The notes under the pieces are model-generated. The model did no database searches. It was given only the letters and a program-made list of their open reading frames with translations, and was not told the DNA's origin. 64,000 bases of DNA from Candidatus Poribacteria bacterium (GTDB lineage: Bacteria > Poribacteria > WGA-4E > PCPOR2b): contig OZ242326.1 of assembly GCA_965208325.1 (NCBI GenBank), positions 896,001-960,000 on the forward strand, in the 5' to 3' direction. The translations under genes and the position numbers were made by a program. This document shows positions 1-21,046 of this stretch, piece by piece. Positions within the stretch are counted from its first letter, which is position 1; every line of letters begins with the position of its first letter.

Positions 1-540
1 ATTCCACGAATTTTTAAGGCATTATATGATTTGCAGGAATTTGAAAATCACGAATCAGAAGAAATTGAATTGGTTAAGGAGCCCGAGGAGGGGTACTACA
101 CTGTTCGGGCGACGCCTAACCTTGTTTTTACAGATAACAACACTGAAGTAATACAGCACCGGCGAAAGAGTTTTCACTTGGACACCTACGCTTTTGACTC
201 CAACCCTGAAAAGGCTTTATTTTGGTCACTGCTGCGGGCTGGAAAAGTTAAAAAAGTGTATTTCACAGGAATGCTGACGCATGGGCAATCAGATTTTTAC
301 ATCCAATACATTGACCCAGAATCGCATGCAGTCAGGCGATATTATCCCGATTTCCTCATGCGGAAGGATGACGACTCATGGGTCATCGTCGAAGTAAAGG
401 GTGACAATATGGTTGACGACCAGATAGTTCAGGCAAAAGCTGCGGCTACCTATCAGCGAGCAAATGCAAGTCGCATGACATACAAAATCATTAAGGGCAG
501 CGATGCTCAGGCGGGAAGATATAGTTCATTGTTGGAATAG
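1..540 (+). CDS. 3' part of a type III restriction enzyme Res-like subunit (C-terminal PD-(D/E)XK nuclease domain); 5' end lies outside the window
   Basis: Frame is open from base 1. It carries 'FYIQYIDP...RRYYPDFL...VIVEVKG', a PD..ExK motif typical of type III Res C-termini. Confidence 0.7.
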   Translation: MPRIFKALYDLQEFENHESEEIELVKEPEEGYYTVRATPNLVFTDNNTEVIQHRRKSFHLDTYAFDSNPEKALFWSLLRAGKVKKVYFTGMLTHGQSDFYIQYIDPESHAVRRYYPDFLMRKDDDSWVIVEVKGDNMVDDQIVQAKAAATYQRANASRMTYKIIKGSDAQAGRYSSLLE

Positions 541-585
541 GGCATAATCGCAAACATTAAGAGTTCGGGGTCGTTCTTTTTGGCA

Positions 586-1422
586 ATGAGAAAGATCAAA
601 ACAGGACTACGCTGGCTCTGTGGGAAGGTCGGCAAACTTAGTTTTGAACACATACCCCCGGAAAAAGCATTCAACGACCAGAAAGTTTTCCATGACTGCG
701 TTATCAACATCCTTGAAAACCAAAAGCTTAAAACATCTCAACGAGGTGTTGGGGACCATACGCTGTGTATTACCTGCAACAATAATACAGGTACAATGTA
801 TGGGTCTGCTTTTGTAGAATTTTGCAAACGTGCTGCTGACGTGCTGTCTCAGGCGTACGGTTATCCTACGCTGCATTACGAGTATAGTACCTACCCCTTG
901 CGGGTCATTAAACAAATCGTAACGATGTTCTTTTCGACCAATAGCCCAGAATGGCGGAAATCATGTCCTGATTTGGAGAAATTCGTATTGGATAAGCAGG
1001 ATAGATACCTGCCTGAAAGATACGGCATCTTCCTCTATTACAATATTGAAGGTACGCTGCTGAAGCACACAGGCATACAACGTGTGCTTAAATTCGACCC
1101 CGACTGGATTGCTTCACCCAACCTGTCAGAATTCAGTGAAATCGTGCACCCTCCTTTCGGGTATTTGATGACAACAGACTCGGACAAACCAGATGATAGG
1201 CTGTTTGACATTTCTTGGTTCAGCAATTTCACCTTTGATGACTATCGGCGAGTGTATCTAAAAATTCCCGTGTTACCCATTTACACAATGTATGCGGGGC
1301 AATATCCGAGTCGAAAAGAAATAGACGAAATTCGACGCAAAAATCCGGCACGAGGTCTCCAAGATTACCTTGAAGACATCGTGAGTCAGTCTGTCAACAG
1401 GAAAGGCGAACAATCCAAATAG
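586..1422 (+). CDS. HNH endonuclease-like protein
   Basis: N-terminal 'RWLCG..LSFEHIPP...TLCITCNN' ββα-Me/HNH signature; ATG at 586. Confidence 0.65.
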   Translation: MRKIKTGLRWLCGKVGKLSFEHIPPEKAFNDQKVFHDCVINILENQKLKTSQRGVGDHTLCITCNNNTGTMYGSAFVEFCKRAADVLSQAYGYPTLHYEYSTYPLRVIKQIVTMFFSTNSPEWRKSCPDLEKFVLDKQDRYLPERYGIFLYYNIEGTLLKHTGIQRVLKFDPDWIASPNLSEFSEIVHPPFGYLMTTDSDKPDDRLFDISWFSNFTFDDYRRVYLKIPVLPIYTMYAGQYPSRKEIDEIRRKNPARGLQDYLEDIVSQSVNRKGEQSK

Positions 1423-1773
1423 CATTTTCTAAGCATTAATTACGAATTGCTAAGTAGAAAATATATGTATCAATTGGAGGTAATCTGTAAAATCCGTCAA
1501 ATCTTGTAAACTATTGTAAACTTGAATGATGCGACAAATGCGCGAGAAAATCGCTACATACGCTTAAGCGATTGCGACCGGCGTTTGAAGCTGCGGCTGA
1601 AGGATACAGTAACCAACTTAAATTAAATAGTAAATGGATACGGTGACTCTCAACACCCGGCAACGCCATTCGATCGCTCGTTAATCCATTCATTTGGTTG
1701 TAGTTAAAGTCACTATTCCCACGCGTTCCCTTCATCTTAACGCCCGCTTTAATTTAGCAAGGGAGAATACGAT

Positions 1774-2220
1774 ATGACAAAGCGAATTTGGGTACTTCTT
1801 GGAGTTGGAATTATCGCTATTGTCTTCATATTAATTGCTGTATTTGCAGTTCGATCTTGCGGACAGCCCCCGGCCGAGACTCCGGTCCCCGACGATGATG
1901 CAACATCAGCCGCTCCTAAGCCCACACGCGCGATAAAACCTGCGCCCGCGTATGTATCCGTTTCAATCAACGCCGTTCCGTGGGCAGAGGTTTTCATAAG
2001 GACTCCTGGAAGCGCTCGATTCGTAAAACCGGGGACTAAATACTTTAATATCAAGCCTCCTTCCAATGGAAAGGATGCCCACGTCACTCCGATTCGCGGA
2101 AAATTGAAAGTGCCGGCCGGCACAGCGATAAAGTTGGTGTATGATGGACGAGAGAAAATTTTCCCTTACGAGTCTTGGAAGACAAGGCGTTCAATCTCAC
2201 ACGATTTTCTGGGGCAATAA
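1774..2220 (+). CDS. Membrane-anchored protein with Pro-rich linker and PEGA-like domain
   Basis: N-terminal TM helix, PPAETPVP linker, 'VSINAVPWAEVFI...VTPI' PEGA-like pattern; GGGAG RBS. Confidence 0.55.
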   Translation: MTKRIWVLLGVGIIAIVFILIAVFAVRSCGQPPAETPVPDDDATSAAPKPTRAIKPAPAYVSVSINAVPWAEVFIRTPGSARFVKPGTKYFNIKPPSNGKDAHVTPIRGKLKVPAGTAIKLVYDGREKIFPYESWKTRRSISHDFLGQ

Positions 2221-2266
2221 CCTATCATTAAATAGAGTCGCTGGTAGATTTTTGGTGATACTTAAA

Positions 2267-4621
2267 ATGAGATTTTTCGTCATTTTTACGAAATTAATCC
2301 TTTTGACGGTCTGGAATTCGTCAGTCGCCATGGCCCTTACATCGGAAGAGATTGCCAAGAAAGCGTTGGACGCTACTGTACTTCTTGTCATGGTCGATGT
2401 CAATGGCAAGGTCGAATCACAAGGCAGCGGGTTTTTTGTACAATCAAATCGCATTGTGACCAATTTCCACGTTATTGATGGTTTCACTAGAGGCGACGCA
2501 AAACCTGTTGGTCGACAGACGGTGTACCCGATTGAGCATGTCTCGGCGGTGGACAGGAAGCACAATTTGGCAATTTTACAGGTGTCGGCACCCGGAATTG
2601 AACCACTTTCCATAGGGAACAGTGCGTCAGTTGCGGTTGAAGATCAGATTTATGTCGTGGGCAATCCATTAGGCGTCCTTGAGGGCACATTCTCTGAAGG
2701 GATTATCAGTGCGATCCGAGAAGTGGATTCGGTAAAGCTGTTTGAGGTTACTGCACCCATCTCTGAGGGTAACAGCGGCGGTCCAGTGCTAAACGCCCAA
2801 GGCGAAGTAATTGGAGTTTCACACGGAGCGGTCCCTGCAGGGCGGAATCTAAATTTTGCGATCCCGTCAATCCACATTCAAGTGCTCGCCAACAAATTGG
2901 GCAAAGAACTGCTAGAAAAGGGTATTCTGCAATATGAAGCTACCCAATTCAATGAGGCAATAAAATCATTGCGATTAGCCCTAACCGAGCTTAGCGATTC
3001 GAAACTGCGAGCCGTTGCCCACCTTTACCTTGGATGCTCAAAACGAGGATATGGAGAATCTGATTACCCCGTTAGCGCGGCGTTTGTAGAGGCGCTTCGA
3101 CACAATCCTGAACAGATGTTGCCGCCTAGAATAGGAGAGGACCACCCGGTTTTTAAACCGATGCTCGAAAAAGTACGGTCTGAGTCAACTGGGAAATTGA
3201 CGGTTAACTGCTCACTCCCCGAAACTGAAATCTGGATTGACGGGGAGGTAATTGACAGGAAAATGATTGGCAGCGGCAATGCCGCCGTCCGACTATTTGT
3301 GGGCGGCTACACCGCGGAGGGGGTTTTTGAAGACGTGTACCGAAAGGCCTCATTCTCTATTGTACCTGATGGGCATGAGATTCTTTATCTAGATATGCCG
3401 CCCGTATTAAGGCATGAACCCCCATCTAGAGTTTCCGTCGGTGAGGTTATCTCTCTTTCTTTGGATATAATTAGCCGCGATAAGGCGAAGCAGGTTCAGA
3501 TCCACTACACCATCTTCGACAGAAACGGGGAAGAATTGGTCCGGGGGATGCAGGACATGCTTTTGTGGAAGGAACAGCCCATACCGTCTACGTGGATTCA
3601 CCGCTCGGATTTGCCATCGCAAACCACCGTAGGAAGAATTTCATATTTCATCATGGCGGATGAAGGAAGGTCTCCTACTAGTCAGTTTCATGAAATCGCA
3701 ATTGTTGACGAGAATCTCCCAATAATTGACCTGCTAGAGCCCCCTGAAACTGCCGAATTCAGGGTCAACCAATCCATTTCGGTTAGAGCAAAAGTAACTG
3801 ATAACACCGCTATTGATGAGGTTCGTATTCATTATGCTTTCTCGAGTTCAGGCAATTCAAGACCTTCCGAGACAATTCCGTCTGAACCACTGGTGAAGGA
3901 AACCTCTGGCGACGTATATGCCGGGTTAATCCCGCCGCAAAAGAGCGGTCCCGGCTACATCTGGTATTATCTGACCGCAATTGATGAAGAAAATAACCAG
4001 CGCCGCTCCGATTTCAGACGAATAAGTATAGTAAAAATTCCCGATGAGCGGCCCATGATGCCGGCGATAATTAAACGAAGCGCCCCGGTACGCCTCCCAC
4101 ATCAGAGTGTATGGGCAAGCCTCGGGTTGTGGAACGATATTCTCAAATTACATCGACCTGATGCTTTTTCGTGGGAAAGAGGAAATGTAATCAGTCTCGG
4201 TTACTTGAGTGAAGGCAGGGGCTATCCGACACTTGGCGTAAAACTGGATTATTCGTATCAGATTCGCGAAAACATAAATGCGACAATAGAATTGGGGCCT
4301 GCAATTAGAAACGCTGCAATCACAGTAGCATTACTGGGCGGTGTTGCACGGTACAAAAAAATTTACGATGAATCGAATCCAATTACACCTTTTCTCGGTG
4401 CGAGTTTAAGGCTTTACCCAATGGATACCGTCACAATTGACATCGCAAGTTCGATTAATCTTAGGTCGTTTGACACCACTTCCATACAATTCCAGCACTA
4501 CGAAATGGGCCTGCGGATTTACCTAACGCCAACTCTGAACCTCAAGTTAAGTTACGGAAATTGGTACATAAGAGAGCACGGAAACAAAAGCGTTCAGATT
4601 GGACTGGGGATTAAATTCTGA
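2267..4621 (+). CDS. Secreted trypsin-like (S1C) serine protease-domain protein with TPR-like, PEGA/Ig-like domains and a C-terminal outer-membrane beta-barrel-like region
   Basis: Signal peptide (MRFFVIF...AMA); GSGFFV, TNFHV and GNSGGPV protease motifs; helical TPR-like segment; amphipathic beta-strands ending in 'VQIGLGIKF'. Confidence 0.75.
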   Translation: MRFFVIFTKLILLTVWNSSVAMALTSEEIAKKALDATVLLVMVDVNGKVESQGSGFFVQSNRIVTNFHVIDGFTRGDAKPVGRQTVYPIEHVSAVDRKHNLAILQVSAPGIEPLSIGNSASVAVEDQIYVVGNPLGVLEGTFSEGIISAIREVDSVKLFEVTAPISEGNSGGPVLNAQGEVIGVSHGAVPAGRNLNFAIPSIHIQVLANKLGKELLEKGILQYEATQFNEAIKSLRLALTELSDSKLRAVAHLYLGCSKRGYGESDYPVSAAFVEALRHNPEQMLPPRIGEDHPVFKPMLEKVRSESTGKLTVNCSLPETEIWIDGEVIDRKMIGSGNAAVRLFVGGYTAEGVFEDVYRKASFSIVPDGHEILYLDMPPVLRHEPPSRVSVGEVISLSLDIISRDKAKQVQIHYTIFDRNGEELVRGMQDMLLWKEQPIPSTWIHRSDLPSQTTVGRISYFIMADEGRSPTSQFHEIAIVDENLPIIDLLEPPETAEFRVNQSISVRAKVTDNTAIDEVRIHYAFSSSGNSRPSETIPSEPLVKETSGDVYAGLIPPQKSGPGYIWYYLTAIDEENNQRRSDFRRISIVKIPDERPMMPAIIKRSAPVRLPHQSVWASLGLWNDILKLHRPDAFSWERGNVISLGYLSEGRGYPTLGVKLDYSYQIRENINATIELGPAIRNAAITVALLGGVARYKKIYDESNPITPFLGASLRLYPMDTVTIDIASSINLRSFDTTSIQFQHYEMGLRIYLTPTLNLKLSYGNWYIREHGNKSVQIGLGIKF

Positions 4622-4786
4622 GCGTTCATACCTTTATTGTGACTACACTTATTATCCCCCAAATATCAATCTAAACACGTGCACGACGACACCGATATTT
4701 TTCCAACTTTACATCATCGCATTTCTCGCCCTTAACGGCGGATGCAAAGACGCAAGATGTGTCTTGGGTTGGCAACTCTTTGAATA

Positions 4787-5275
4787 TTGGAGATTCATGT
4801 GCTTCAATCAACGTTCAACCAACGCCTAGCGTCGTGCATTATTGTTGCATTGTTGATTTTTTTGAACATAGGTTGCGCTACAATTACGCGGGGTAGTAAA
4901 CAAGAGATATCAATATCTAGTGAACCACCGGGAGCATCTGTAACCATCGATAATCAGCTTTATGGGGTAACCCCTACGGCGGTGCAACTTGCTCGTTCCA
5001 AACCCCATTCGGTGTTCCTTCAACTTGAAGGTTACGAACCCGTTTTAATACAGATTCAGTCACAACCCGATGCTGCTGTCGCGGGAAACTGTCTGATGTG
5101 TTGTTGTTTGGGTGTACCTGGCATTGTAGCCTTTGCAGTAGACATAATAACGGGTTCCGGTCGAACGTTAACGCCTGAAACAATTCACGTAGTTTTAATC
5201 CCCTTTGATGTTATTCTACCACCAGAAGTTGGGCAAAAATGGTATGTACGTCGTGCCTCTAGCGGCGAAAGATAG
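4787..5275 (+). CDS. PEGA-domain lipoprotein
   Basis: Lipobox-like 'NIGC' followed by 'ISISSEPPGASVTIDNQLYGVTP...LEGYEP' PEGA motif. Confidence 0.75.
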   Translation: MEIHVLQSTFNQRLASCIIVALLIFLNIGCATITRGSKQEISISSEPPGASVTIDNQLYGVTPTAVQLARSKPHSVFLQLEGYEPVLIQIQSQPDAAVAGNCLMCCCLGVPGIVAFAVDIITGSGRTLTPETIHVVLIPFDVILPPEVGQKWYVRRASSGER

Positions 5276-5555
5276 ATGGGAGTATAAGCACCAGTGTCCA
5301 ATAGAGTATAGCGTTACGACGAAAATTACGGTTCCGACATGTCCAACTACATAATCGGCTATTCAAATAAAAAACCTGACGAGCGGCAATTAAATTTTTA
5401 GATCGATTTCAAATGCCTACTCCAGTGAGGAATTTCTAAACTTTACGTCTGAATTGCCTCGCGAATTCTTTCAACATCAGCTTCAAACAAGAAGACTGAG
5501 ACCCTGACATTCGAACTAAGTCATTGGCGAGCCTAGTTAGGTATTGGACTGTATT

Positions 5556-6167
5556 CTAATAAAACACTACACCAATTGCAAAACTGTCAATTGCCCCGGT
5601 AAACGAAAAAGCATACGTACCCGAAATTATCAAAGATGGAGAAACCGTTAGTTCTAACCCCATCGCCGCATTTACGTGGCCTTCATCGATTTCCAACTCA
5701 TCATTCAGAAACTCCCAGTTGTAATTGTATCCCACACCGAAAAAAGGCGCAAATTCCATTGGGCTTGATTCGGATTTCAGTCGTTTTAATAGACCGGCAT
5801 AGCCGCCTAAGCCAAGTCCATAGATGTGTAGGTCACTGGCAAGGTTTTGATATGAGCCCCCTCCCCCAATCGTGACAAACGAATCGAATCCCGTAGTGCC
5901 AAACGGAGCGATGTGCATAAAGTCTAGTGAGGCTGCGGGAGAGGGCGGAACATCTAATTCATCGAAAAACCGAATCGCACCGGTAAACGATGCTTTTGCG
6001 TTTGCGTCAATGCCATATTCGAGATTGGCCCAAATGGCACGATTCATTTCAGTAAAGGCTAATCCAAGTCCAAATGTGCTTTGTGTGGGCGCCAACCGTT
6101 TAAAGCTTGCAAAAGCGCTTGTGGCACACACATAAAAGCAAATTGCAATAATGAAGATTTTTTTCAT
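5556..6167 (-). CDS. Putative outer-membrane beta-barrel protein
   Basis: Signal peptide MKKIFIIAIC...AFA; alternating hydrophobic strands; C-terminal aromatic 'IGVVFY'. Confidence 0.6.
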   Translation of the reverse strand: MKKIFIIAICFYVCATSAFASFKRLAPTQSTFGLGLAFTEMNRAIWANLEYGIDANAKASFTGAIRFFDELDVPPSPAASLDFMHIAPFGTTGFDSFVTIGGGGSYQNLASDLHIYGLGLGGYAGLLKRLKSESSPMEFAPFFGVGYNYNWEFLNDELEIDEGHVNAAMGLELTVSPSLIISGTYAFSFTGAIDSFAIGVVFY

Positions 6168-6319
6168 GGTAACTGGGTTCTCCATAAAACCAAGTGAGTT
6201 GCTAGATTTTTCTAGAACTTCATGATGTAATTTTGTTGTCCGCAGTTGTAATGATTGCGGAATGTCAGATAGCGGCACGTATCAGGCCATCCCATGTAAT
6301 GCGGATTTGGGAAAAAGGG

Positions 6320-6649
6320 TTATTCACCGTATACCGTTATAGTATAGGTGGCCACAATTCCTAGAACACTCTGTGAGTGTTGCTCAACATGGTGGATCTT
6401 GGTGATACCACCATTCCTAGCCGCCGTTTGGATACTTGCATCCCCTATTGCGACCCATCCAAGAATGGATTGTGCGAATGCCGTTCCTGATTTGAGCGGT
6501 TTGACATTGTTATCTATACTTGAAGGAATTGGTGCCTTTACATCGGAGTATAGAAAACCCGTAACGGGTTGTTTAGCCTGTGCAGCACATCCTGTCAGAT
6601 ACATAACCAGCAATAACGGGATTGTAACAGTAACAACAAATTTTGACAT
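6320..6649 (-). CDS. TRL-like family lipoprotein
   Basis: Lipobox LTGC; 'SILGWVAIGDASIQTAARNGGITKIHHVE' matches the TRL-like family pattern; AAGGAG RBS. Confidence 0.8.
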   Translation of the reverse strand: MSKFVVTVTIPLLLVMYLTGCAAQAKQPVTGFLYSDVKAPIPSSIDNNVKPLKSGTAFAQSILGWVAIGDASIQTAARNGGITKIHHVEQHSQSVLGIVATYTITVYGE

Positions 6650-6944
6650 GGTAAACTCCTTTTAATTGAGCAAAATAAAATCATCACCTATAATCATAGC
6701 CGGCATCGCTGTCCTTTATCACTTAATGCCGAACTTGTAGCGGCTTTGACCCCGCCCCCAATCTCAGAAGACGGCTTTCGCGATGCCTAGCAATCGGAAT
6801 CACTAAACCCATTTGGAATTTAGCAGCAAATAACAGACAGAAATCGATGAACGCGTATCGTTTGGCAAGGAAATGATTTGCGCCGTACATCGGCATTTCA
6901 ATCTTAGATTGACGCTCTTGTTATTCTTCATTAAGTAATGATTT

Positions 6945-6973
6945 ATGATACCACAAGAAACCTTTCTCGGCAA
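6945..6973 (-). promoter_or_regulatory. Putative sigma70 promoter for the TRL/beta-barrel genes
   Basis: Minus strand reads TTGCCG-17 bp-TATCAT with an extended TG. Confidence 0.4.
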
Positions 6974-7237
6974 CGCCAAAAATCTGCGAACGCCGGTTGA
7001 CGGATACTCCTGTCCTAGTATAAAATCTTAAATTTTCACAAATTGTATTTTACCGCCACCACGCATTATATCCGATACTGTCAGTAACGCTTTTTTTAAT
7101 GAGAAAACTCATAGTTGAGAATCTACCGCCGGATGCCACATAGAAACTGAAAATCATGTAAACTTCTTTAAACTTTGTAAACTTGATCGAGAGAAAATTT
7201 CATCAAAATTTACGTCGCTACAACTTGACATACTTCG

Positions 7238-7954
7238 AGGTTTTGTCGACATCTCTTTATAAGGTTGTGGCATTATGTTAAGAATGATGCCGATAACCTT
7301 ACCTGATAACCAATGGGAAAAAATATATGAGTTTCTTCTGGGTTGTTCCAACATCTTTGTCCGCAACGAAGCCGAAACCCGACGATTCGTCGAAGCTGTC
7401 CTGTGGGTGGCTCGCAGCGGTGCGCAATGGAGATTATTGCCTACTGCTTATGGCAAGTGGAACTCCATTTACAAGCGGTTTAGTAACTGGTGCGACATAG
7501 GAATCTTCGAACATATGCACCGCCACTTTGCCTCCGACCCAGATATGGCGTCGCTTATTATTGACTCGACCATTTGCCGGGCTCACCCATGCGCACCTGG
7601 CGCCTCAAAAAAAACGGGGGTGCCGAAAACCAAGCGTTAGGACGTTCTCGCGGCGGCTTCAGCACCAAGATTCACATCACAGTTGACGCACTAGGTAATC
7701 CGCTTAGACTCCAGCTAACCCCCGGTCAGAGACACGACATAGCTGAAGCCGAATCGTTGATAGTTGGATATAACAGCCAGCATGTAATTGGAGACAAAGG
7801 ATATGACTCAGTTGAATTTATCACCGTTATTGAAGCCAATGGTGCCATTCCGGTGATACCACCACGACGTAATCGTGGTGCTCAAAGAACATTCGACCCC
7901 CATTTATACAAAGAGAGACATCTAGTCGAATGTTTCATCAAAAAAAAATACTAA
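7238..7954 (+). mobile_element. IS5-family (IS427-group-like) insertion sequence, 3'-truncated
   Basis: Two overlapping ORFs joined by an A8 slippery site at 7607-7614; probable left IR AGGTTTTGTCGACAT at 7238-7252; no right IR found. Confidence 0.85.
7275..7954 (+). pseudogene. IS5-family transposase (orfA 7275-7640 / orfB 7574-7954, -1 frameshift), C-terminally truncated
   Basis: 'FVEAVLWVARSGAQWRLLP..YGKWNSIYKRFSNW', 'IDST', 'GRSRGGFSTKIH', 'GDKGYDS', 'ERHLVECF', then a premature stop after the A9 run at 7940-7948. Confidence 0.85.
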
Positions 7955-8300
7955 TCCACGCCACATCACCAACAGCGATTCACCATCCGTGGCAACGCCG
8001 CATGATTATGTGCCCACGTAATCATAGCCCATCGTTTAATCATACAAATCACAGTTCAGACAGTCTTCTCAATAACGCAACACTACACCCGCCGCGGCAA
8101 CAATATGTAGGTTTCATTTTGTTTTTCGAGATTCCCACCGAGCGCCAAAGAATGCCCTGAATCAGAATCCAAAACAACACTGTCCCAAAATTTCCCCTTC
8201 ATACCCACCTGCAACGGCACAAACCCTTGCCCCGTCCGCATCCAAGCGATGGATTTTTCAACCCTTTCCGCCAAAAACCCCGATAACCTCGCACTCCGCC

Positions 8301-8329
8301 TTGACAATCGCTAAATCTCAAAGTATACT
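8301..8329 (+). promoter_or_regulatory. Near-consensus sigma70 promoter giving an almost leaderless transcript
   Basis: TTGACA (8301-8306), 17-bp spacer, TATACT (8324-8329); ATG at 8339 with no SD. Confidence 0.75.
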
Positions 8330-8338
8330 ACAATTATT

Positions 8339-8872
8339 ATGCCAACTACAAATGTCCAATTCGGCGAATCGGACATTGACTTCACCATTGAGCGTTTTGC
8401 TTATTATGGTGAGGGAAAAGCTAATGCGAAGCGCGTAATTCGTGATGTATGTGATTATTTTGGGATTGAAGACAATGCTAGCAATCATAAATTATTATCC
8501 AATAAAATTCGTACCTTTAATCCCAACCGAAAAGACTGCGCAGAGCATTATCGGAGTCGCTATCTCATGAAACGAAATCAGGTTCTTACACACAGACACG
8601 AACCCAACGGCATTTTTTCACAACAGCTACATGCACTTTTACTCGTTGCATTCAAAGTTCTGTCTGAAGAGATGACGCCGCCCCTCGCACTCAAGCTCAT
8701 TGAAGCCGAAATCCGATTCGCAATTGAAAACAAACACATAAATGTTCAGGAAAGAATTGAACGACAATGTTTAGCCGCCGACACGGGAGATAGTTCATTT
8801 CTAAATGGAAAGACGGAGCCGGATTTACGGAAACCACAGTCGGTTTCTGAAAATCCATCGCGCATACCATAG
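8339..8872 (+). CDS. DUF2280-like protein, putative terminase small subunit
   Basis: Pattern 'FTIERFAYY...VIRDVCDYFGI...FNP...AEHY..RY...R...LALKLIE' resembles DUF2280 proteins; lies directly upstream of terL. Confidence 0.45.
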   Translation: MPTTNVQFGESDIDFTIERFAYYGEGKANAKRVIRDVCDYFGIEDNASNHKLLSNKIRTFNPNRKDCAEHYRSRYLMKRNQVLTHRHEPNGIFSQQLHALLLVAFKVLSEEMTPPLALKLIEAEIRFAIENKHINVQERIERQCLAADTGDSSFLNGKTEPDLRKPQSVSENPSRIP

Positions 8873-10619
8873 TGTAAGCGTGCCGTCCGCCATTAAAAGA
8901 ACTGGAGAGGAACAGGACATCTATCTCCGCGGCTTCCATGATGTCCTCTTCTTTGCCAAGCATCACTTTCCCAATGTGTTTACGGTGGAGTGCGGTCCCC
9001 ATGCTTCTCCTATTCTGAATTGCATTCCTTCAGGTGAGCGCGGACAGCGCGTCAATATTATTGCGCCTAGAGGTTGCGGCAAAAGCACCTACATCGCCGT
9101 AATCTATGTGCTGCACTGCGTTTACTACAAAGACGAATACGAACGGCGCGGCTTAATGCCCGATAGCTTCATCGTTATCCTGTGCGGTACCAAAGACCTC
9201 GCTGTGGCGCGGCTGCACGACATCCGAGACAAAATCGAGGACGATCCCAACTTCCGCCATCTCAAAGGAAACGGTAAGTGGAGCGCGGACCAGCTCGATA
9301 CGGCAAACGGAGCATGCCTAATTCCCGTCGGGCGGCACGGAAGAATCCGCGGTGAACTCAAGGATCTCGCAAGACCGACGCTAATTATCCTCGACGATGT
9401 TGAAGACTGCGAGGAAGTCCAAAACCCCCGTATCCGAGATAAAAACTGGAAATGGTTCAACGAAGATGTCATGGCTGCTGGTAGAATTGACGGCAAGACT
9501 AACTTCATCCACGTCGACACCGTAAAGCACGAGGAAGCCATCTCCAAGCGTCTGCAACTTCTGCCCGACTGGTACAACCAATTCTACCGTTCTATTGAAC
9601 ATCCCCGAGACCTACGCCACCCCACCGCCGAACCGTTTTGGGAAGAGTGGCAGAAAATCTATACGGACTTGACGCTCGAAAAAGACGAGCGTGACCGCCT
9701 TGCGCATGCATTTCTTGAGGAACACAAGAATGAAATGCTGGACGGCATCCAAGAACTCTGGCCCCAAATGCTCTCGTACACCTACATCCGGCGGCTCATC
9801 TGCAACGATGGCTATATCCCCGTCATGCGTGAGCGGCAAAACTCGACACGCGACCCTTCTAAAGAAATTTTCAACATGGAAAAAGCCGTTCGCTTCAAAA
9901 TCACGCCCGACGGACTCTTGCGTAGCGACGGGCGGCTAGTCCTATGGAGCGACATCGCTGGCGGTACAGTTTTCCTCGACTGGGCTGGCGGAAAGGACGC
10001 TTACGATTCCTGCTACGCCGCCGCTGTGTTTGTCGTGTGGGAACCGCTGCCTCAAGCGACTATGAGGCGTAAGGGAGAACCGGTTGCCGCCCTCTCTAAC
10101 ACCCACGCCTACGTCCTGAACGTCTGGATGGACAAAGTCCCCGTCACGACCCAACTCGAGGAGACTTTTAAACTCATAAAGCGCAGTGTCAGCGCTGTAC
10201 CGAACATTCGATTCGATTCCATCCTGCTCGCAGTCGAGGAAATTCCGAAAGACACCGGTAACGCGTTACACACCATGATATCGCGGGCTTTTAAGGGTGC
10301 GCGGGAAAAATACGGCATGACCTCGTTAGTCCGCCTTAAATTCCACAAACGAAGTGTCCGGAAGTTGGACCGCATCGCCGCGTTGGAACCGCCAATCGCC
10401 AACGGTTGGCTCGTCTTCAATGAGACGCTGCCAGAAGTGTTTATGCGCCAGATGCGGCAATTCCCGACCGGGGATTTCTGCGACGGTCCCGACGCCCTGC
10501 AAGGCGGGACTGAGTTGCCCATCACGCGCTTCCCCGCCCATAAACTGCCGCACGGAATGCCGATGCCGTTCGACGACGATCCGGACGCGCCAATGCACGT
10601 TATAAGGAGTTATCTATGA
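8805..10619 (+). CDS. terL: Phage terminase large subunit-like ATPase/nuclease (probable start GTG 8880)
   Basis: Walker A 'IIAPRGCGKST', Walker B 'LIILDDVED', RNase H-like nuclease acidic residues 'FLDWA', 'AVEE', 'DGPDAL', and 'KLDRIAALEP..NG' / 'QFPTG' TerL motifs. Confidence 0.85.
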   Translation: MERRSRIYGNHSRFLKIHRAYHSVSVPSAIKRTGEEQDIYLRGFHDVLFFAKHHFPNVFTVECGPHASPILNCIPSGERGQRVNIIAPRGCGKSTYIAVIYVLHCVYYKDEYERRGLMPDSFIVILCGTKDLAVARLHDIRDKIEDDPNFRHLKGNGKWSADQLDTANGACLIPVGRHGRIRGELKDLARPTLIILDDVEDCEEVQNPRIRDKNWKWFNEDVMAAGRIDGKTNFIHVDTVKHEEAISKRLQLLPDWYNQFYRSIEHPRDLRHPTAEPFWEEWQKIYTDLTLEKDERDRLAHAFLEEHKNEMLDGIQELWPQMLSYTYIRRLICNDGYIPVMRERQNSTRDPSKEIFNMEKAVRFKITPDGLLRSDGRLVLWSDIAGGTVFLDWAGGKDAYDSCYAAAVFVVWEPLPQATMRRKGEPVAALSNTHAYVLNVWMDKVPVTTQLEETFKLIKRSVSAVPNIRFDSILLAVEEIPKDTGNALHTMISRAFKGAREKYGMTSLVRLKFHKRSVRKLDRIAALEPPIANGWLVFNETLPEVFMRQMRQFPTGDFCDGPDALQGGTELPITRFPAHKLPHGMPMPFDDDPDAPMHVIRSYL

Positions 10620-10874
10620 TGGCTGAATTAACCAACATGTTAGGGCCTTCAAAAATGAGCATTCTCAACTTATTTTTTCTGGCGCACAACAATGCTCAAC
10701 GCCCCAAACCCGCTCCCTGTCTAGCTTTCCACGCGTTTTGCTTATTTCACTATGTCCCAAATACTCAAAAAATAAGCAAATCCAATATCCCAAATTTACC
10801 TCGCCTCAACTTAACCAAAGTCACGCTTATTTCCCTGAACATGTGCCAAATTTCATTTGGAGAGAGGCCGAGAT

Positions 10875-14673: not shown

Positions 14674-16455
14674 ATGAGACGGCTATGCATTTTCAATCCC
14701 TCGAAACGTTGGAAACTGAGACTCCCATTATTTCGCGCGATTCTGCCGATCGGGTTAATTGCCGCCGTTTTCGTTTCGGGGGGCTACGGAAAGCTCAAGG
14801 AGGAACCAACGATGCAAAATGAACAATTAGCAGAGGCACCCAACACGCTGGATTTGGTAGAGCGGGCTGGGTATGCGATTAACGCGATGACGCGAAGCAC
14901 CAATCCGGAAGCGGAGTACGCGGTCTACTTCACCGGCGTGCTCCACCGCAACCCGCCGACCCTATCAGGGCAAATTCCACTGTACGGAAAATTCATGGAA
15001 GGGACGGCGTTGATGCGCATTATGACGAGCGGCGAATTCAACACACGCCCATCTTCCCAACCCAAGGATTTCAATCGACACGTGGACCGCGTCTGGCAAG
15101 ATGCGTTTGTGCGGTTACTGACTGAAAGTAAGCCGGTGCTTACGGGACCCGAAGGCGGACGGCAACTCGCATGGTTAGCCATTCAGTATCGGCGGACGAA
15201 TAACGAAATGTGGAAAGAACTCGGTGAATCGGCGATTCAGCGCGCGCTTGATGCGGCAGTCCATCAAGATGGCTACTGTTATTTCCCGCACGGCGCAGAA
15301 GGGACGATGCCGACGGGCTGGGGGGCGACCTACCAAGGGTGGACGCTTCAAGGGCTCAGCCAGTTTCATATTGCGACCGGTTCGGACGTTGCACTGGAAC
15401 TGGCGGGCAAACTTGCCCGCTATTTGAAGGATTACGCTGGCGTTTTTGATGCGGACGGCCGGTTTCTATCGCGCCACGGCGATTCCATTCCGCACAGCCC
15501 GCCAGCCACACTGGGACCTGCACTGCATTTCCACCACAACGGCAATGCGATGGAAGGGCTGATGGAGTACGCGTTGGCGAGCGGCGATGCGGAATATGCT
15601 GAATTCGCGAAAAAATGCTATGAATACGCCCGTTCGCTCCCCGACTCATCGCCGCTTATCGGCTTTTTTCAGGAGTACATTGACGATTGGCCCGATAACC
15701 GCGGCGTCATTGACTGCGAAACCTGCTGTGTTGTTGACATGATGCTGACGGCGCTCTGGATGACGAAGGCGGGTGTTGGCGATTATTGGGACGACATTGA
15801 CCGGTACATGCGGAACCAGTTCGCCGAGATGCAGATGACCACCGGAGATTGGCTGGAAAAAATGAATGAAGGGCTATCATATCAACCGCCGGGCGATGAT
15901 GAGATTGCGATGGGTTCACCTCAGCGTTGGATCGGCACCTTCGCCGGTTGGGCGACTGCCAATGACTTCTTCGCCATCGGTGCAGGTCCAGGTATTATGC
16001 ACTGCTGCACCGGCAACGGGTCACGGGCGCTTTACTATCTCTGGGAAAATACGCTAGAATACAACGACGGAGAGTTACGGCTCAATCTGCTTCTTAACCG
16101 GCAATCTCCATGGGTGCAAGTCAGCAGCCATATCCCGTATGAAGGCAAGGTTGAGTTGAAGGTCAAGGCAGGGTGTGAAAATATTGCCGTTCGCGCGCCC
16201 GAATGGGTGGAAGGGTCGAGCGGCGTACTGTCGTGCCGCGTCAACGGCGCCGTCCGCAAAATTAGTTGGACGGACCGCTATGTGCACATCGGTGAAGCGG
16301 CGCCTGGCGACACAGTTGAACTCGCATTTCCGATATCTGAACGGACGGTCGAGGAAACAGTTGGCGGTGTTCCTTATACGCTTGTAATCAGGGGAAATAA
16401 CGTGGTTTCCATCTCACCGCAGGGAAAGAATTATCCGTTTTACCACCGTAATTAA
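14674..16455 (+). CDS. GH127/GH146-like protein, tandem paralog copy 2 (alternative start ATG 14812)
   Basis: Highly similar to copy 1 with the same CETCC / HCCTGN motifs; signal-peptide-like N-terminus. Confidence 0.75.
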   Translation: MRRLCIFNPSKRWKLRLPLFRAILPIGLIAAVFVSGGYGKLKEEPTMQNEQLAEAPNTLDLVERAGYAINAMTRSTNPEAEYAVYFTGVLHRNPPTLSGQIPLYGKFMEGTALMRIMTSGEFNTRPSSQPKDFNRHVDRVWQDAFVRLLTESKPVLTGPEGGRQLAWLAIQYRRTNNEMWKELGESAIQRALDAAVHQDGYCYFPHGAEGTMPTGWGATYQGWTLQGLSQFHIATGSDVALELAGKLARYLKDYAGVFDADGRFLSRHGDSIPHSPPATLGPALHFHHNGNAMEGLMEYALASGDAEYAEFAKKCYEYARSLPDSSPLIGFFQEYIDDWPDNRGVIDCETCCVVDMMLTALWMTKAGVGDYWDDIDRYMRNQFAEMQMTTGDWLEKMNEGLSYQPPGDDEIAMGSPQRWIGTFAGWATANDFFAIGAGPGIMHCCTGNGSRALYYLWENTLEYNDGELRLNLLLNRQSPWVQVSSHIPYEGKVELKVKAGCENIAVRAPEWVEGSSGVLSCRVNGAVRKISWTDRYVHIGEAAPGDTVELAFPISERTVEETVGGVPYTLVIRGNNVVSISPQGKNYPFYHRN

Positions 16456-16508
16456 ATCGGTCCTGAGAACCCCCTGCACTCACCCAAATAACTAAAAAAA
16501 ACGTTCAA

Positions 16509-16814
16509 TTAGCACTTGACCTGGATTTCGCCATCCTCAACGAGAACGTCATAAGATTTCACTTGTAACCGCACATCGGTGCGGCACACGCCGGTTTCGA
16601 CATCGTATGCGTAACCGTGAACCGGACAGATTGCCAAGCCGTTTTTAATGCGTCCTCTGCCGAGTGACCCCAGGGCGTGGGCGCATGTATTATCAAGCGC
16701 GTAAAAATTCTCGCCATCGTTGAAAACCGCAATACGTTTTCCGTTTATGGTGAAGGCTTTCCCCCGCCCGACGGGAATATCCGACGTTTTTGCCACGGGC
16801 GCATAAGATGACAT
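16509..16814 (-). CDS. Rieske [2Fe-2S] ferredoxin (NirD/dioxygenase ferredoxin-like)
   Basis: CAH...CPVH Rieske ligands; GAGGAG RBS. Confidence 0.9.
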   Translation of the reverse strand: MSSYAPVAKTSDIPVGRGKAFTINGKRIAVFNDGENFYALDNTCAHALGSLGRGRIKNGLAICPVHGYAYDVETGVCRTDVRLQVKSYDVLVEDGEIQVKC

Positions 16815-16865
16815 CGCGTTTCTCCTCTTGAGTTAAACTTTCTTCAGTATAAAAAACGACACAGA

Positions 16866-17072
16866 CTAGGGCGTGTTGACATTTGGCATCCCGTAGGTTG
16901 AATTGAACGGTTAAACGGCAGTCCCTATCAAGTACAATGGAATCTTTTGTAACACAATCTGTTAGATTGTGATCCGAGCCCGCAAACTAACAGTTTGTGC
17001 TACTTATATCAGATTATCCAATGGTGACAACGTTTGCGGAATCAGTAGCCTCAAAATGTCAACAGAACCTAG
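16866..17072. mobile_element. MITE with IS5-type terminal inverted repeats inserted at CTAG
   Basis: Left end CTAGGGCGTGTTGACATTT, right end AAATGTCAACAGAACCTAG (16/19 inverted match); no ORF; a second left end follows at 17069-17084. Confidence 0.75.
16981..17003 (-). repeat. GTAG-type REP-like hairpin
   Basis: Reverse complement reads GTAG-CACAAACT-GTT-AGTTTGCG. Confidence 0.6.
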
Positions 17073-17200
17073 GGCGTGTTGACAAATTAGTCATGACAGC
17101 ACAGCTTAGTAGGAACGACAATTAAACGCATTGGCAAGTCCATTGTTTGCTGTTCCCATTTTACATTGATTCACGGCGGATTGTAAAGCGGCACGTCTGT

Positions 17201-19306
17201 TCACGCATTCTGAGCATCATCATCTTCCATCTTCTTTACCAACCGGTCAATCCTTTGAAACTGCCACGTCCAGCGGACATTGTAGAGAAATTGCCTGAGG
17301 TCAAATCGATTGTCATCAGGCGAATAGGATTCGGCATGATATGAAGGCGTCAACGTTGTCATCTTATGGCGGTTGAGTGAATAGTGGTAGAAAAAATACC
17401 TGACCTTTGCAGCCACTTCCTGGCGCGAAAGATGATGCCACTCATGAACCAATTTCTCAAACATGTTTACTGGCCCGCACCGATCTATTTTGCGGAGCCT
17501 TCCGAACCGGCTAAGTTCCTGGTAGGTCAACCCCATATCCGCTTCGTCTTCCTGCGTATACGACTCGGTGATGGGTTCTAGCTCCGCTGTCGGCGGCGCG
17601 TCCAAAACATCGTTAAGAATCGTATACCCCAGATTTTCCGCCGCCCACCGCAAAAACCGGCGGAGATCCTCCTTGCTTATTCCCCCAATCGGATTTATGT
17701 CAGCGCTGCTGCAGTCGTATTTTGTTACGTAGCCGCGCAGGCTCTCATCCACATTCGCCGTTCCCAGCACCAGCAATACCCCGCGTTTGCCGCGCACCCA
17801 CGGCAACAGTTGCGCCAATAGGTAGGAAAATACCATGCGAAGGCGTGCTTGGATGTTCTGCAGAGCGGTGTTTTCCGATGCCGTGCCGCCGTCCACCTTG
17901 AACCGCGGAGTTTTCTGGGTCAGCTTTATAAAGAGGGAGAGCATTGCAGCGACGACGGAATCAATATTGACATTCAGGTGGTACGCCCCAATCTGATCCG
18001 CCAACTCTTTTGCACGCGTGCGTGTCACCTTTGAGCTGTTCACAGTCGCCAGATAGCATGTGTGGAGAATTCGGTTGGCGAATTCACGCGCATCGGTCGG
18101 CAGATAGCCGCCCGCCTCGTCTTCTCCGGCGATGCGGCGAGCGTCTCGGATGACCGCACGATTCCCCGCCTTTGCTTCTTTGGCTACCATTTGGCACATC
18201 GATCCGACCAAGGTAGCAACCGTGGAACTATCCGCTCCCCCCGAGATTGGCAGGAAATACCCCGCTGCACCGGAGCGCCTCAGATAATCCCATAGCCAGC
18301 ATGCCGGGCCGTAAGCAATTTCGCCTTCCGGTGTGTGATAGCGAATCTCTATCGGCGGGGACGGCGCAAGTCCATAATCCTCGGCGGTAAGGTCGAAATC
18401 CACAGCAACTCTGGGAACCAATTCCGATTGGCTCGCCTGCACGCCGCGGCTAGTTTTCGCCCCGCGATACGAGCGGACATCTTCCAAATCGAGCGTGGCG
18501 GTTAACACTTCGATGTCGTTTAGCGAAAACTGTGTTCCTTGCGCCACAATCTCGCCGTTAACGGCTATCATGGCACAGCCGTCGAAGTAAAGACGTCCCC
18601 CATCGCAGCCTTGCTGGTTTGCATAGAGGTAGATCCCGCCGGCTTTTGACGTGGCGTTGCGGATGAGATTTACGCGCTGGTCGAGTTTACGAAGTTCGTG
18701 ATGCGATCCCGATGCGTTGGTGATAATCTCAACCCCGTTCAAGCTGAGGTAGATATGCGGGCTATTCGGTGCAAAAAGCCCCTCACAAGTTTCCGCCGCA
18801 AGCACAGTGTCGCGCGTCGCGACGGCGGCATCGCCGAACGGGACGGTATCCTGACCCGTGATTTCCCGAATCATGCGCGGCAGATAGAAGTCTTCTAGCG
18901 TCTTGGAATGCTGCCACGCTGCGAACCACCGCATTTCACGGTAATTTCCGTCCGCCGCGAGAATCGGCTTCGGTATAATCAGGACAATTTTTCGATCCAG
19001 CACGAGAATGCGGCAGTTGTACCGCACATTTTTGTGCATCACCGGCATCCCGATATCGCAAAGCATGCTTGTTGTCAAATCCCCACTGAGTATCTCGGCG
19101 AGGCATTCCCACGAATGAAGAAAAGTATCCTGCTCCAAAAAATGATCTTCGCATCCGTAACCGGAAATCTCTAATTCGGGACCGACGCGATACCGTGCTC
19201 CCTTTTCTTTTGCAATCTGAGTCGAGGCAACAATTCGCTCAAGATTTCCTTCGAAGTCCATCGCCCATTGATTGAGATTGCAGGTTGCGAGGGTTACTAA
19301 TTTCAT
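17201..19306 (-). CDS. nadE: Glutamine-dependent NAD+ synthetase (eukaryote-type Qns1/NADSYN1-like)
   Basis: N-terminal nitrilase-fold glutaminase ([14 protein letters not shown]), 'SGGADS' P-loop, 'QNIQARLRM', '[16 protein letters not shown]', 'PTAELEP'. Confidence 0.95.
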
Positions 19307-19717
19307 AGTTTTTCCGTTTCGTGCCAGAGTTACAGGTCCGGTCAGAAGCCAAATGCCCTACCGCCGAGATTCCTTGTTCACTCGTACCTTTATTGCATCG
19401 TGCAAGATACGGGGGTCTGGTGTTTTATGCGAGGTTGGCGGCGTAAAACGCCACACATTTTATCATAACATCGGTTTGCATGCGAAAGATAACGGTTCGC
19501 CGCAGCGTTACTGAGGTGCTGGAAGACCGGCAAAACAGCGGCCCGCACCGTGAATTTTGGAGACAAAATTTCACAGTTTTCACAGTAAACTGAAAAAACG
19601 GGAAAACGAAATATGCCCACAAACATAGGTGAGGCGCGGGTTCAGCCGACTGTTAAGAATATGTTACTGTGAAATTTTCATAGTTTTAGTGGTTAGGTGG
19701 TTGAACGTCCAAAAGCT

Positions 19718-19817
19718 CGTATTAGGGCAATTCTTTGCCCGTTATTACACATAAAATCTGGCAGACCGAGAAAGTGAATAGCCTGCCGGACGCTCAATTG
19801 ATTGCGCGACTACGAAC
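19718..19817. repeat. Inverted pair of REP-like hairpins
   Basis: CGTATTAGGGCAATTCTTTGCCCG (19718-19741, +) and, on the minus strand, CGTAGTCGCGCAATCAATTGAGCG (~19791-19814). Confidence 0.5.
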
Positions 19818-19906
19818 CTCTACCATGGTGCGCTCAAACCGTCAACCGTTTTCCACCAGCATTCCGCGAGTAGGACGACGGAGGATTGTAGTATAAGTTG
19901 GTTTGA

Positions 19907-20410
19907 TTACTTTACGGATTCATTGAAAATTGGATCCGTTGTTCGGAATCTGAGGTTGTCTTTTGCTTTGATTTCATCGATTAAGTTTCTAACGTCTGGT
20001 TGCGTCAAAATTCCACATTCCCAAAGCGCCCGTAAGGTCTCGGCTAGGTTGACGCAGTCTATTTTGATTCTCAGACAGTGATGTTTGACTCGCCGTTCGT
20101 TGCTAACAAAGACGGCGCCTAATCGTTTGCAAATTGCCATTGTCTCGCGTTCCCCCAAACCGAGTGTCCAAGGCAAAGTTTCCATGAACTGTTGGTCTGC
20201 ATCTGTCGGTTGATACGTCACGATTCGTCCTTGCGCGTGTAATGCCATGACATTTTCTACAAAATTGAACCCCTTAACGGCGCCCGTTTGTAGTTCGCGC
20301 TCCACGGCGGAAGAAATGTTGAGTAAATCCGCATTGAAGACGGTGAACAACAGCGGCAAACGGTGAACTTTAGCAAAAATCGAAAGCACATCCGTGTCAA
20401 TGAAAACCAC
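19907..20410 (-). CDS. PIN-domain toxin (VapC/DUF3368-like)
   Basis: 'FIDTDVL', 'VEREL', 'LGLGERETMA', 'FVSNE' PIN motifs. Confidence 0.8.
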   Translation of the reverse strand: MVFIDTDVLSIFAKVHRLPLLFTVFNADLLNISSAVERELQTGAVKGFNFVENVMALHAQGRIVTYQPTDADQQFMETLPWTLGLGERETMAICKRLGAVFVSNERRVKHHCLRIKIDCVNLAETLRALWECGILTQPDVRNLIDEIKAKDNLRFRTTDPIFNESVK

Positions 20411-20412
20411 GG

Positions 20413-20763
20413 TTAAGCCCCTTCGGAATTGTCGTTTGGCTTGTGAACTTGCTTGACGACCGAAACTCCCGCCTGCAATGCGTCCACCGATTCGATTTCA
20501 ATTGTCTTTGGGATACCCTTCGCGCTCAAAGCCACGTCAAACTCAAAACGGTGGATTCCAGCCAATTCCGCTGCCCTCGCAAGCGTCACTTCACCGTGTT
20601 GATAAAGCAAAATTGCGGCATCAAGACGAGATTCTTTTTTCGTAGTGACTAATTTTTCAAGTGCATCGGTCATCAACGCATGCGAATCGGCATAAAGTCC
20701 CACATCAATCAGGGCGTTCACCTCTTCTTCAAGGGTAGGTGAGTGAATTTCAATCTGGAGCAT
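20413..20763 (-). CDS. UPF0175-family antitoxin
   Basis: 'AILLYQHGEVTLARAAELAGI..FEF...L..KGI' HTH pattern; 2 bp upstream of the PIN gene. Confidence 0.8.
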   Translation of the reverse strand: MLQIEIHSPTLEEEVNALIDVGLYADSHALMTDALEKLVTTKKESRLDAAILLYQHGEVTLARAAELAGIHRFEFDVALSAKGIPKTIEIESVDALQAGVSVVKQVHKPNDNSEGA

Positions 20764-21046
20764 GGCTTTCTTTCCTTTCGATATCGAAGTTAATTACGAA
20801 AAGTCAACCTCATCGGCGTCGAGCTTGCGGAGAAAAAGATCTTGAGATTGGTGGAGGATTCGAATTTTCAAAATCATTTTCCCAATGCGAAAAGATTGGT
20901 TCGATAAATTTAGGTACGCAAGGATTATGGACAGGGTTATACCGGTACCGCAGCGGGCGAACCATCCACTCCCATGGCGTCAACTGCTTCATCTAGCGAA
21001 ATGGTTAGGTTTGCATAATGAGGCATAATCTGAATCTCATTCACGT

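Follow-up and report, generated by a model that had tools for sequence, protein, structure and literature searches.

How did a sponge-associated bacterium of the Candidatus Poribacteria come to make its NAD+ with an enzyme of the eukaryotic kind, and in which direction did the gene cross between the domains? The question is raised by nadE, a gene on the minus strand of a 64,000-nt stretch of a Candidatus Poribacteria contig (OZ242326.1); this whole stretch is called the window hereafter, and all coordinates are positions within it. An earlier note, made from the letters of the window, had described there a 701-amino-acid (aa) open reading frame (ORF) with telling motifs at both termini, had assigned it to the NADSYN1/Qns1 type rather than to typical bacterial NadE(Gln), and had proposed either horizontal gene transfer (HGT) from a eukaryote to a bacterium or a bacterial lineage that stands near the eukaryotic gene's source. 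We found both motifs in the translation, in an uninterrupted frame, and the assignment was borne out by the searches presented below. We are highly confident that nadE encodes a eukaryote-type NAD synthetase and that all bacterial copies of it belong to a single clade. Taken by itself, the enzyme is an unremarkable representative of a well-known family; the novelty lies in where it occurs and in what it replaced. The gene and its parts lie as follows.

17201-19306, minus strand: nadE, eukaryote-type (NADSYN1/Qns1-like) glutamine-dependent NAD+ synthetase; a single unbroken ORF of 701 aa with an ATG start and its stop codon at 17201-17203

18464-19291, minus strand: nitrilase-superfamily glutaminase domain (CN_hydrolase), residues 6-281, Pfam PF00795, 143.4 bits

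17507-18298, minus strand: NAD synthetase domain, a PP-loop ATP pyrophosphatase, residues 337-600, Pfam PF02540, 96.5 bits

17204-17506, minus strand: C-terminal extension, residues 601-701, with an NRHKMT...YHAE...DNRFDLR motif block common to eukaryotic enzymes

Likeness of NadE to eukaryotic NAD synthetases

In its architecture NadE is one chain of about 700 aa in which an N-terminal nitrilase-type glutaminase is joined to a C-terminal NAD synthase, as in the NADSYN1/Qns1 type. By searching solved structure chains, we found 6ofb_A to be by far the best match (939.7 bits, E 9.4e-282); 6OFB is the human enzyme according to the available text of Chuenchor et al. (2020, PMC6946656). Residues 3-699 of the query align with residues 5-701 of this chain, end-to-end collinear with four gaps of 1-3 residues, and the C-terminal extension, aligned with it as far as chain residue 701, holds many invariant columns in our alignment A1. 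The second structure match, 3ilv_A, covers both domains at 218 bits, and chains of the Mycobacterium tuberculosis (Mtb) type reach 82-86 bits only, confined to the N-terminal domain. The models of classical bacterial fused NadE score far below their cut-offs, with 148.1 bits against 473 for PRK02628 (NF002730) and 123.3 against 479 for PRK13981 (NF010588). Among the whole-protein bacterial models of NCBIfam none reached its cut-off for the 701-aa protein and only the domain model TIGR00552 passed, so that, for automatic annotation, NadE does not divide cleanly into “bacterial” and “human”.

Sequence searches also led to eukaryotes. In an exhaustive search of representative proteins, the best matches of NadE were only 50-60% identical to it, and those that had an organism name (7 of the 30 looked up) were all eukaryotic: a red alga, an insect, a ciliate, two fungi, a nematode and a shrimp. 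When the enzyme of the red alga Chondrus was searched in return, red algae came first at 55-78%, followed at 57-59% by proteins of Chloroflexota and Poribacteria; a lupin entry aside, these bacterial proteins preceded the named eukaryotes of other groups. Over the kept alignment columns, identity of Poribacteria NadE is 59% to red algae, 61% to green algae and plants, 56% to animals and 53% to fungi. The eukaryotic groups are 51-58% identical among themselves, and classical bacterial NadE is 22-24% identical to all of them. Two of the eukaryotic entries may be gene-model fusions: P0029 (Lupinus, 1201 aa) is one gene model with two NAD synthetase copies in tandem, and in P0365 (a Galdieria entry, 1088 aa) the NAD synthetase domains are preceded by a PF01467 domain of the nicotinamide mononucleotide adenylyltransferase (NMNAT) type and a ribosomal-protein domain.

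Then, we built maximum-likelihood trees. In a quick tree of 78 rows (LG+C20+F+G4 by posterior mean site frequency, PMSF), the query, all 19 named bacteria and nine unnamed metagenomic rows formed one clade, with a support of 99 in the Shimodaira-Hasegawa-like approximate likelihood ratio test (SH-aLRT). The sister group of this bacterial clade (92) consisted of red, green and brown algae plus a plant, with opisthokonts and the ciliate branching deeper. A careful tree was made from 52 rows: beforehand, 26 rows of the 78-row set had been dropped (13 long, unplaced or redundant unnamed rows, three long named eukaryotes, four near-duplicate bacteria, four unnamed rows of the bacterial clade and two outgroups), and three outgroups of the PRK13981 type had been added. 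First, the bacterial clade, with members from Poribacteria, Chloroflexota and Deinococcota, was recovered with a support of 100/98 on a short stem (0.078), and it grouped with the red, green and brown algae and the plant at 85/92. Second, the 45 eukaryote-type rows were split from the seven classical ones at 100/100 by the longest branch of the tree, 4.5+4.5 changes per site. Third, Poribacteria were not monophyletic within the bacterial clade, in which Chloroflexota, the Trueperaceae and unnamed rows made up a weakly supported group (87/87) beside two groups of Poribacteria. This non-monophyly fits onward transfer between bacterial phyla. The earlier note had said that its idea would fall if nadE clustered with a broad bacterial clade outside eukaryotes: a robust bacterial clade spanning three phyla does exist, and it lies inside or beside the eukaryote-type radiation rather than with the ordinary bacterial NadE.

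Protein P0130 (719 aa, on a contig of 14 kb) is the first branch next to the outgroup in the careful tree (98/90) and carries all the eukaryote-state residues described below; a prokaryotic origin of P0130 would make it relevant to the direction of transfer.

To the trees can be added the catalytic and signature residues. In the alignment with 6OFB, query numbering equals human numbering minus one (positions in human numbering are marked HS). The glutaminase triad E44, K113 and C174 corresponds to human Glu45, Lys114 and Cys175, and a second glutamate, E124, to the essential Glu125; all four are invariant in alignment A1. Residues were counted in the 52-row alignment, where 50 rows could be grouped (21 of the bacterial clade, 22 named eukaryotes and 7 classical bacterial) and two unnamed rows stayed ungrouped. 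The triad and the second glutamate are kept in 20-21 of the 21 bacterial-clade rows, and in the PP-loop SGGxDS (residues 355-360) S355, G356, G357, D359 and S360 are kept in 50 out of 50. The available text of Chuenchor et al. (PMC6946656) gives Tyr123 and His203 as conserved in eukaryotes, with Phe and Pro in prokaryotes, and Glu120 as conserved or chemically conserved in eukaryotes. NadE carries the eukaryote states, namely Tyr122, His202 and Asp119. The same states (Tyr123HS, His203HS and an acidic residue at 120HS, 17 times Asp and three times Glu) were found in 20 of 21 bacterial-clade rows; among the named eukaryotes, Tyr and His occur in 21-22 of 22 and Asp or Glu at 120HS in 18 of 22. 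All seven classical bacterial rows have Phe, Pro/Asn and Tyr at the three sites.

Among characterized enzymes, human NADSYN1 (hsNadE, 6OFB) is alike in two-domain layout and in length, 701 aa in NadE versus 706 aa in the available text of Chuenchor et al. (2020, PMC6946656), and it shares the Cys-Glu-Lys triad, the second Glu, the YRE loop with its Tyr, His203HS and the PP-loop. The Poribacteria enzyme differs from it by its bacterial host, by an identity to animal enzymes of about 56% over kept columns, and by some changed tunnel residues, such as a Glu at the position of Trp54HS in the pairwise alignment. Yeast Qns1 (Bieganowski et al. 2003, as cited in PMC3376133 and PMC6946656) belongs to the same enzyme type as far as the available text of these papers goes. 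This likeness comes from the literature, and the fungal rows that we compared, none of them from yeast, are 53-55% identical to the bacterial clade and fall in the same eukaryote-type group in the careful tree. The classical two-domain NadE, whether of the Mtb type (PDB 3DLA/6OFC, NF002730) or of the PRK13981 type (NF010588), has the same reaction, domain order, triad and PP-loop; however, the Poribacteria enzyme is merely 22-24% identical to it and has Tyr and His at the YRE-loop and constriction sites where the classical enzymes have Phe and Pro/Asn. The nearest solved bacterial relative is PDB 3ILV, a two-domain NAD synthetase of 634 aa that we take to be from Cytophaga hutchinsonii; yet it is a far weaker match than the eukaryotic one, is shorter than Poribacteria NadE and has a different C-terminus. 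A 670-aa Atlas cluster, commonest in Myxococcota, was flagged as feature-similar to NadE.

By analogy with the human enzyme, we infer that NadE amidates nicotinic acid adenine dinucleotide (NaAD) in a glutamine-dependent manner. Its N-terminal domain would hydrolyze glutamine with Cys174-Glu44-Lys113, aided by Glu124, and the ammonia released would pass via an internal tunnel to the C-terminal PP-loop domain. There, NaAD provided by NadA, NadC and NadD would be adenylated with ATP and then amidated to NAD+. Going by 6OFB, the assembly is probably a homo-octamer. Protein P0153, from a metagenomic cluster with 13 members that falls inside the bacterial clade, has Ala in place of the catalytic Lys and Leu in place of the Cys, has lost the YRE residues and has kept its PP-loop intact; judged from its residues, its glutaminase domain may be dead and the enzyme may use ammonia alone.

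Role in the genome and distribution among bacteria

The host genome is a single contig of 4,707,648 bp in which PF02540 has three matches: nadE, the GMP synthase GuaA, and a 301-aa PP-loop protein that is matched over just 65 residues. The genome thus holds no second nadE of the bacterial type, for which the earlier note had advised looking, and nadE is its sole true NadE. Since NadA, NadC and NadD (the last at 184.8 bits, above its cut-off) are encoded as well, the cell makes NaAD and needs the nadE enzyme for the last step. In composition, the gene has a G+C content of 0.537 versus 0.508 +/- 0.031 for the 1357 long ORFs of the genome, and of 0.607 versus 0.541 +/- 0.057 at third codon positions. 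Its codon-usage distance from the genome mean falls at the 6.7th percentile, that is nearer to the mean than 93% of the long ORFs. By both measures nadE looks native and old in this genome. A scan for promoters and terminators returned 6 and 4 sites, respectively, against 3.4 +/- 1.9 and 5.2 +/- 2.4 expected, which is not above chance.

All 41 sampled relatives carry nadE, at 65-98% identity. We then searched an even draw of 151 Poribacteria genomes, counting families f1-f4 as the order of the query and leaving the query genome uncounted. A strong full-length match was present in 138 of the 139 sampled genomes of the order. Genome G140, which belongs to the family of the query (95% complete, in 260 contigs), has no NadE of any kind by protein or by PF02540, and this absence is probably an assembly gap. 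Outside the order, none of the 11 sampled Poribacteria genomes had a strong match (best E 1.5e-8). Nine of these 11 were examined with the NadE family models: three have a fused NadE of the PRK13981 type (738-750 bits for a cut-off of 479), two have adjacent separate glutaminase and synthetase genes, and four have single-domain NadE frames. The two split-gene cases, G044 (C14:49250-50937) and G109 (C47:19394-21087), match the “clustered” arrangement described in the available text of De Ingeniis et al. (2012). Because the order carries the eukaryote type while the Poribacteria outside it carry classical NadE, the eukaryote type replaced classical NadE at or before the base of the order.

Within the order, seven genomes of genera g14 and g17 (G075, G076, G077, G086, G094, G119 and G133) have a nadE match that is split at about residues 310-316. 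Both pieces lie in one open frame of 719-779 aa, which suggests an inter-domain linker insertion of roughly 25-35 residues in their NadE. In G120 and G124, from the same two genera, the NadE halves fall into different frames or contigs.

A pattern scan of 185,579 species genomes returned about 200 with a relative of nadE. The best 80 of these matches came from 53 Poribacteria, 23 Chloroflexota, one Trueperaceae and three unlabelled genomes, the Chloroflexota carriers belonging to Ardenticatenaceae, Promineifilaceae, Caldilineaceae and other Anaerolineae. Samples drawn round such carriers gave low counts, even with the seed genome or genomes of each sample included. The nadE type was found in 1 of 251 genomes of a Chloroflexota sample, i.e. 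in the seed genome only, and 24 other genomes of that sample encode a classical NadE, about 700 aa long and 26-34% identical. At the level of Chloroflexota orders, 12 of 81 genomes carry it in one order and 1 of 81 in another; in Deinococcota it is carried by 1 of 151, a Trueperaceae. The nadE type is therefore rare and patchy in both phyla.

Direction of transfer

Both explanations offered by the earlier note remain live after the trees and the approximately unbiased (AU) test. On balance, and by a modest preference, we favour as the more parsimonious reading a eukaryote-to-bacterium transfer that replaced the native NadE, over a bacterial sister or donor lineage. The ancestor of one Poribacteria order would have gained nadE across the domain boundary, most likely from a eukaryote, and the acquired gene would have replaced the native bacterial NadE that other Poribacteria still carry. 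It would then have been inherited vertically within the order and would also have been handed on sporadically, to some Chloroflexota of the Anaerolineae group, to a Trueperaceae and to further uncultured bacteria. Several observations count for such a transfer. First, every eukaryotic group sampled has the eukaryote type, which is very rare among bacteria. Second, the sister lineages of the carrier order retain bacterial types, and nadE is so patchy in the other phyla that it could not have persisted in any known bacterial lineage since before eukaryotes radiated. Third, the bacterial clade is monophyletic, has a short stem (0.078) and lies among eukaryotes in the careful tree. Fourth, the outgroup never joined to the bacterial stem in three trees. 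Fifth, forcing eukaryotes to be monophyletic costs 5.77 log-likelihood units, with an AU p of 0.064 (22 named eukaryotes, 21 bacterial-clade rows, 7 outgroups).

Several results weigh against it. First, at this AU p eukaryote monophyly is disfavoured and not rejected at 0.05, which is suggestive at most. Second, the position of the bacterial clade next to algae is not robust: in a pruned quick tree, from which four long rows had been removed (the ciliate, one fungus and two unnamed rows), the bacterial clade stood beside opisthokonts (83), two unnamed bacterial-clade rows left the clade, and the outgroup fell inside red algae, an obvious artefact. Third, the outgroups are merely 22-24% identical to the eukaryote type, so their attachment point is unreliable, and the backbone is a short-internode radiation that is left unsettled by these data with such distant outgroups. 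Fourth, a donor younger than the last eukaryotic common ancestor (LECA) would predict a bacterial clade nested robustly in one supergroup, and no sampled eukaryotic supergroup contains it in this way. Fifth, the identity between the bacterial enzymes and each eukaryotic group (53-61%) is like that between one eukaryotic group and another (51-58%), an equidistance that fits a lineage branching near the base of the radiation in either direction. Finally, eukaryotic NAD synthetases are derived from bacteria in the available text of De Ingeniis et al. (2012).

Outgroup-free rootings were uninformative because they were driven by rate differences: minimum-variance rooting of the pruned careful tree placed the root on the ciliate tip, and midpoint rooting placed it along the path that joins a fungus to an unnamed fast row. 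By inspecting eight gap regions for indel signatures, we found only scattered one-residue indels, and therefore no usable shared derived character.

The strongest competitor, which we regard as possible and less probable than transfer into bacteria, is that all eukaryotic NAD synthetases have the bacterial clade as their sister or as the donor lineage that survived. The type would then have arisen in bacteria, LECA would have taken it from a relative of these bacteria, and the present carriers would hold nadE by descent combined with bacterium-to-bacterium transfer. In its narrower form, with the bacterial clade as the closest living relative of the bacterial enzyme adopted by the ancestor of all eukaryotes, we hold the idea a shade more tentatively still. 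Eukaryote monophyly, which the AU test leaves standing, is what such a history requires, and the rough equidistance from all eukaryotic groups speaks for it, as does the way in which the place of the bacterial clade among eukaryotes shifts with sampling. The careful tree is also compatible with it, since it attaches the clade between the algal/plant group and the opisthokont side. This attachment point is presumably near one proposed root of the eukaryotes. In the available text of De Ingeniis et al. (2012), moreover, the eukaryotic branch II is derived from the bacterial branch I with a bootstrap of 97%. Against these points stands the distribution: a type that is universal in sampled eukaryotes is found in only about 200 of the 185,579 species genomes scanned, and Poribacteria outside one order retain classical NadE. 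Within Chloroflexota orders nadE is sporadic; vertical carriage since before LECA is therefore beyond any known bacterial lineage, and a ghost lineage has to be assumed. The topology argues in the same direction, because the bacterial clade is monophyletic rather than paraphyletic around eukaryotes and the best trees put the outgroup among eukaryotes, never on the bacterial stem.

Public sequencing runs bear on the two remaining explanations. The stretch was found in 22 runs of 14 studies, mainly labelled sponge metagenome, and no RNA run is listed among these 22. Four runs of one study contain 83-97% of the sampled words of the stretch; the 18 others, mostly sponge metagenome, contain 15-34%. 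A contig of 2586 nt from one run covers 17008-19593 with zero differences, and a contig of 2551 nt from a run of an independent study covers 17043-19593 with 88 differences, i.e. about 96.5% identity. In the four runs aligned with the locus, the one from the independent study among them, no contig bridges nadE to its neighbour genes, every one ending at the flanking repeats. Three more single-contig genomes of the genus have nadE between the same Rieske, GH127-like and glycosyltransferase genes, which were not found within 3 kb of nadE in the other 77 of 80 loci. The contig integrity that the earlier note wished to see confirmed by read mapping is shown by the long-read relatives, which have the same neighbours, rather than by the run contigs, which stop at the repeats.

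A recent acquisition from the sponge host, an animal-to-symbiont transfer in line with the host donor that the earlier note had given as an example, appears very improbable. Although the stretch occurs mainly in sponge-metagenome runs and the protein is about 56% identical to animal enzymes, animals form a clade of their own (99/96) apart from the bacterial clade in the careful tree, which includes no sponge sequence, and it is this clustering elsewhere that makes us rate the explanation so low. Moreover, nadE is fixed in an order within which the NadE protein diverges by up to 35%, it is also present in metagenome-assembled genomes (MAGs) with titles that point to deep-sea water, sand or no sponge source, and its codon usage is fully native. 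Eukaryotic contamination or a chimeric assembly join, the artefact that the earlier note had kept in view and for which the unbridged breaks of short-read contigs at the repeats on both sides of nadE might speak, is practically ruled out by the single 4.7-Mb contig, the same gene neighbours in three other single-contig genomes of the genus, the occurrence of nadE in 138 of the 139 sampled genomes of the order (in many of them on contigs of megabase size), the lack of any other NadE, the native composition and the copy at about 96.5% identity in a run of an independent study.

Surroundings of nadE and wider meaning

The repeats and genes that flank nadE in the window are the following.

16866-17072, no strand assigned: insertion resembling a miniature inverted-repeat transposable element (MITE), about 207 bp, in the spacer between nadE and the Rieske gene; imperfect terminal inverted repeats of 26 nt, 77%

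19555-19817, no strand assigned: pair of dispersed repeats lying upstream of nadE, with units at about 19555-19690 and 19692-19817

16509-16814, minus strand: small Rieske [2Fe-2S] protein of 101 aa, the downstream neighbour, Pfam PF00355/PF13806

19907-20763, minus strand: UPF0175 protein (116 aa, Pfam PF03683) and a 167-aa protein without family match, between nadE and the glycosyltransferase gene

The earlier note had placed a MITE and REP-like (repetitive extragenic palindromic) repeats beside nadE. For the first, we found, besides the terminal inverted repeats, one other copy in the genome (3161759-3161967 of the genome, 95% identity) and absence of the element from the orthologous spacer in three sister genomes (L010-L012). 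In four sponge-associated metagenome runs its word depth is 122-10,847 versus roughly 12-90 in the flanks (about 5 to 700x), and there are loose ends at both of its boundaries, 16865/16866 and 17072, where many different flanks adjoin. These properties bear out the MITE described; and since the genome has only two copies yet the depth in the runs is very high, the element is far more abundant elsewhere in those communities. The only Rfam match in 16000-21000, one miRNA inside the element, has an E of 0.073 and was discarded as being at chance level. For the second, the earlier note is borne out in part: dispersed repeats are indeed present and are at most candidate REP elements. By blastn against its own genome, they have about 8-10 diverged copies at 72-78% identity plus short matches at 93-97%; the unit at about 19555-19690 has perfect inverted ends of 13 nt (19565-19577 and 19666-19678), and short-read contigs break within these repeats, at 19571-19600.

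The Rieske gene adjoins nadE in three loci of the same genus and in none of 77 other loci. The UPF0175 and 167-aa genes were found in none of the 80 related loci by tblastn; they look like a recently inserted two-gene cassette and are possibly a toxin-antitoxin pair. The surroundings of nadE collect insertions, which are young and unrelated to the old acquisition of nadE.

In full-text searches of the literature, judged from the result listings, we found no description of a eukaryote-type NAD synthetase in Poribacteria or Chloroflexota; a stray bacterium in branch II of the supplementary tree of De Ingeniis et al. (2012) is possible. As far as the available texts of De Ingeniis et al. (2012) and Chuenchor et al. 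(2020) go, the eukaryotic NAD synthetases are a compact eukaryote-only branch with signature residues of its own. Here, an entire bacterial order, along with scattered representatives of two further phyla, runs its NAD synthesis on the eukaryote type after losing the bacterial type, and Poribacteria nadE indicates an old gene exchange between eukaryotes and bacteria. If the gene went from a eukaryote to a bacterium, this would be a rare cross-domain replacement of an essential housekeeping enzyme that was followed by spread among bacteria. If it went from a bacterium to a eukaryote, the finding narrows the search for the source of the eukaryotic gene. Should the bacterial clade also be the nearest living relative of the enzyme adopted by eukaryotes, it would point to a donor lineage for a core eukaryotic housekeeping gene and offer a slowly evolving, near-ancestral version of NADSYN1 to study. 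The line between “bacterial” and “human” NadE is not a clean one for inhibitor design either, and for biochemical and structural studies the bacterial orthologues, which lack introns and evolve slowly, can conveniently take the place of human NADSYN1.

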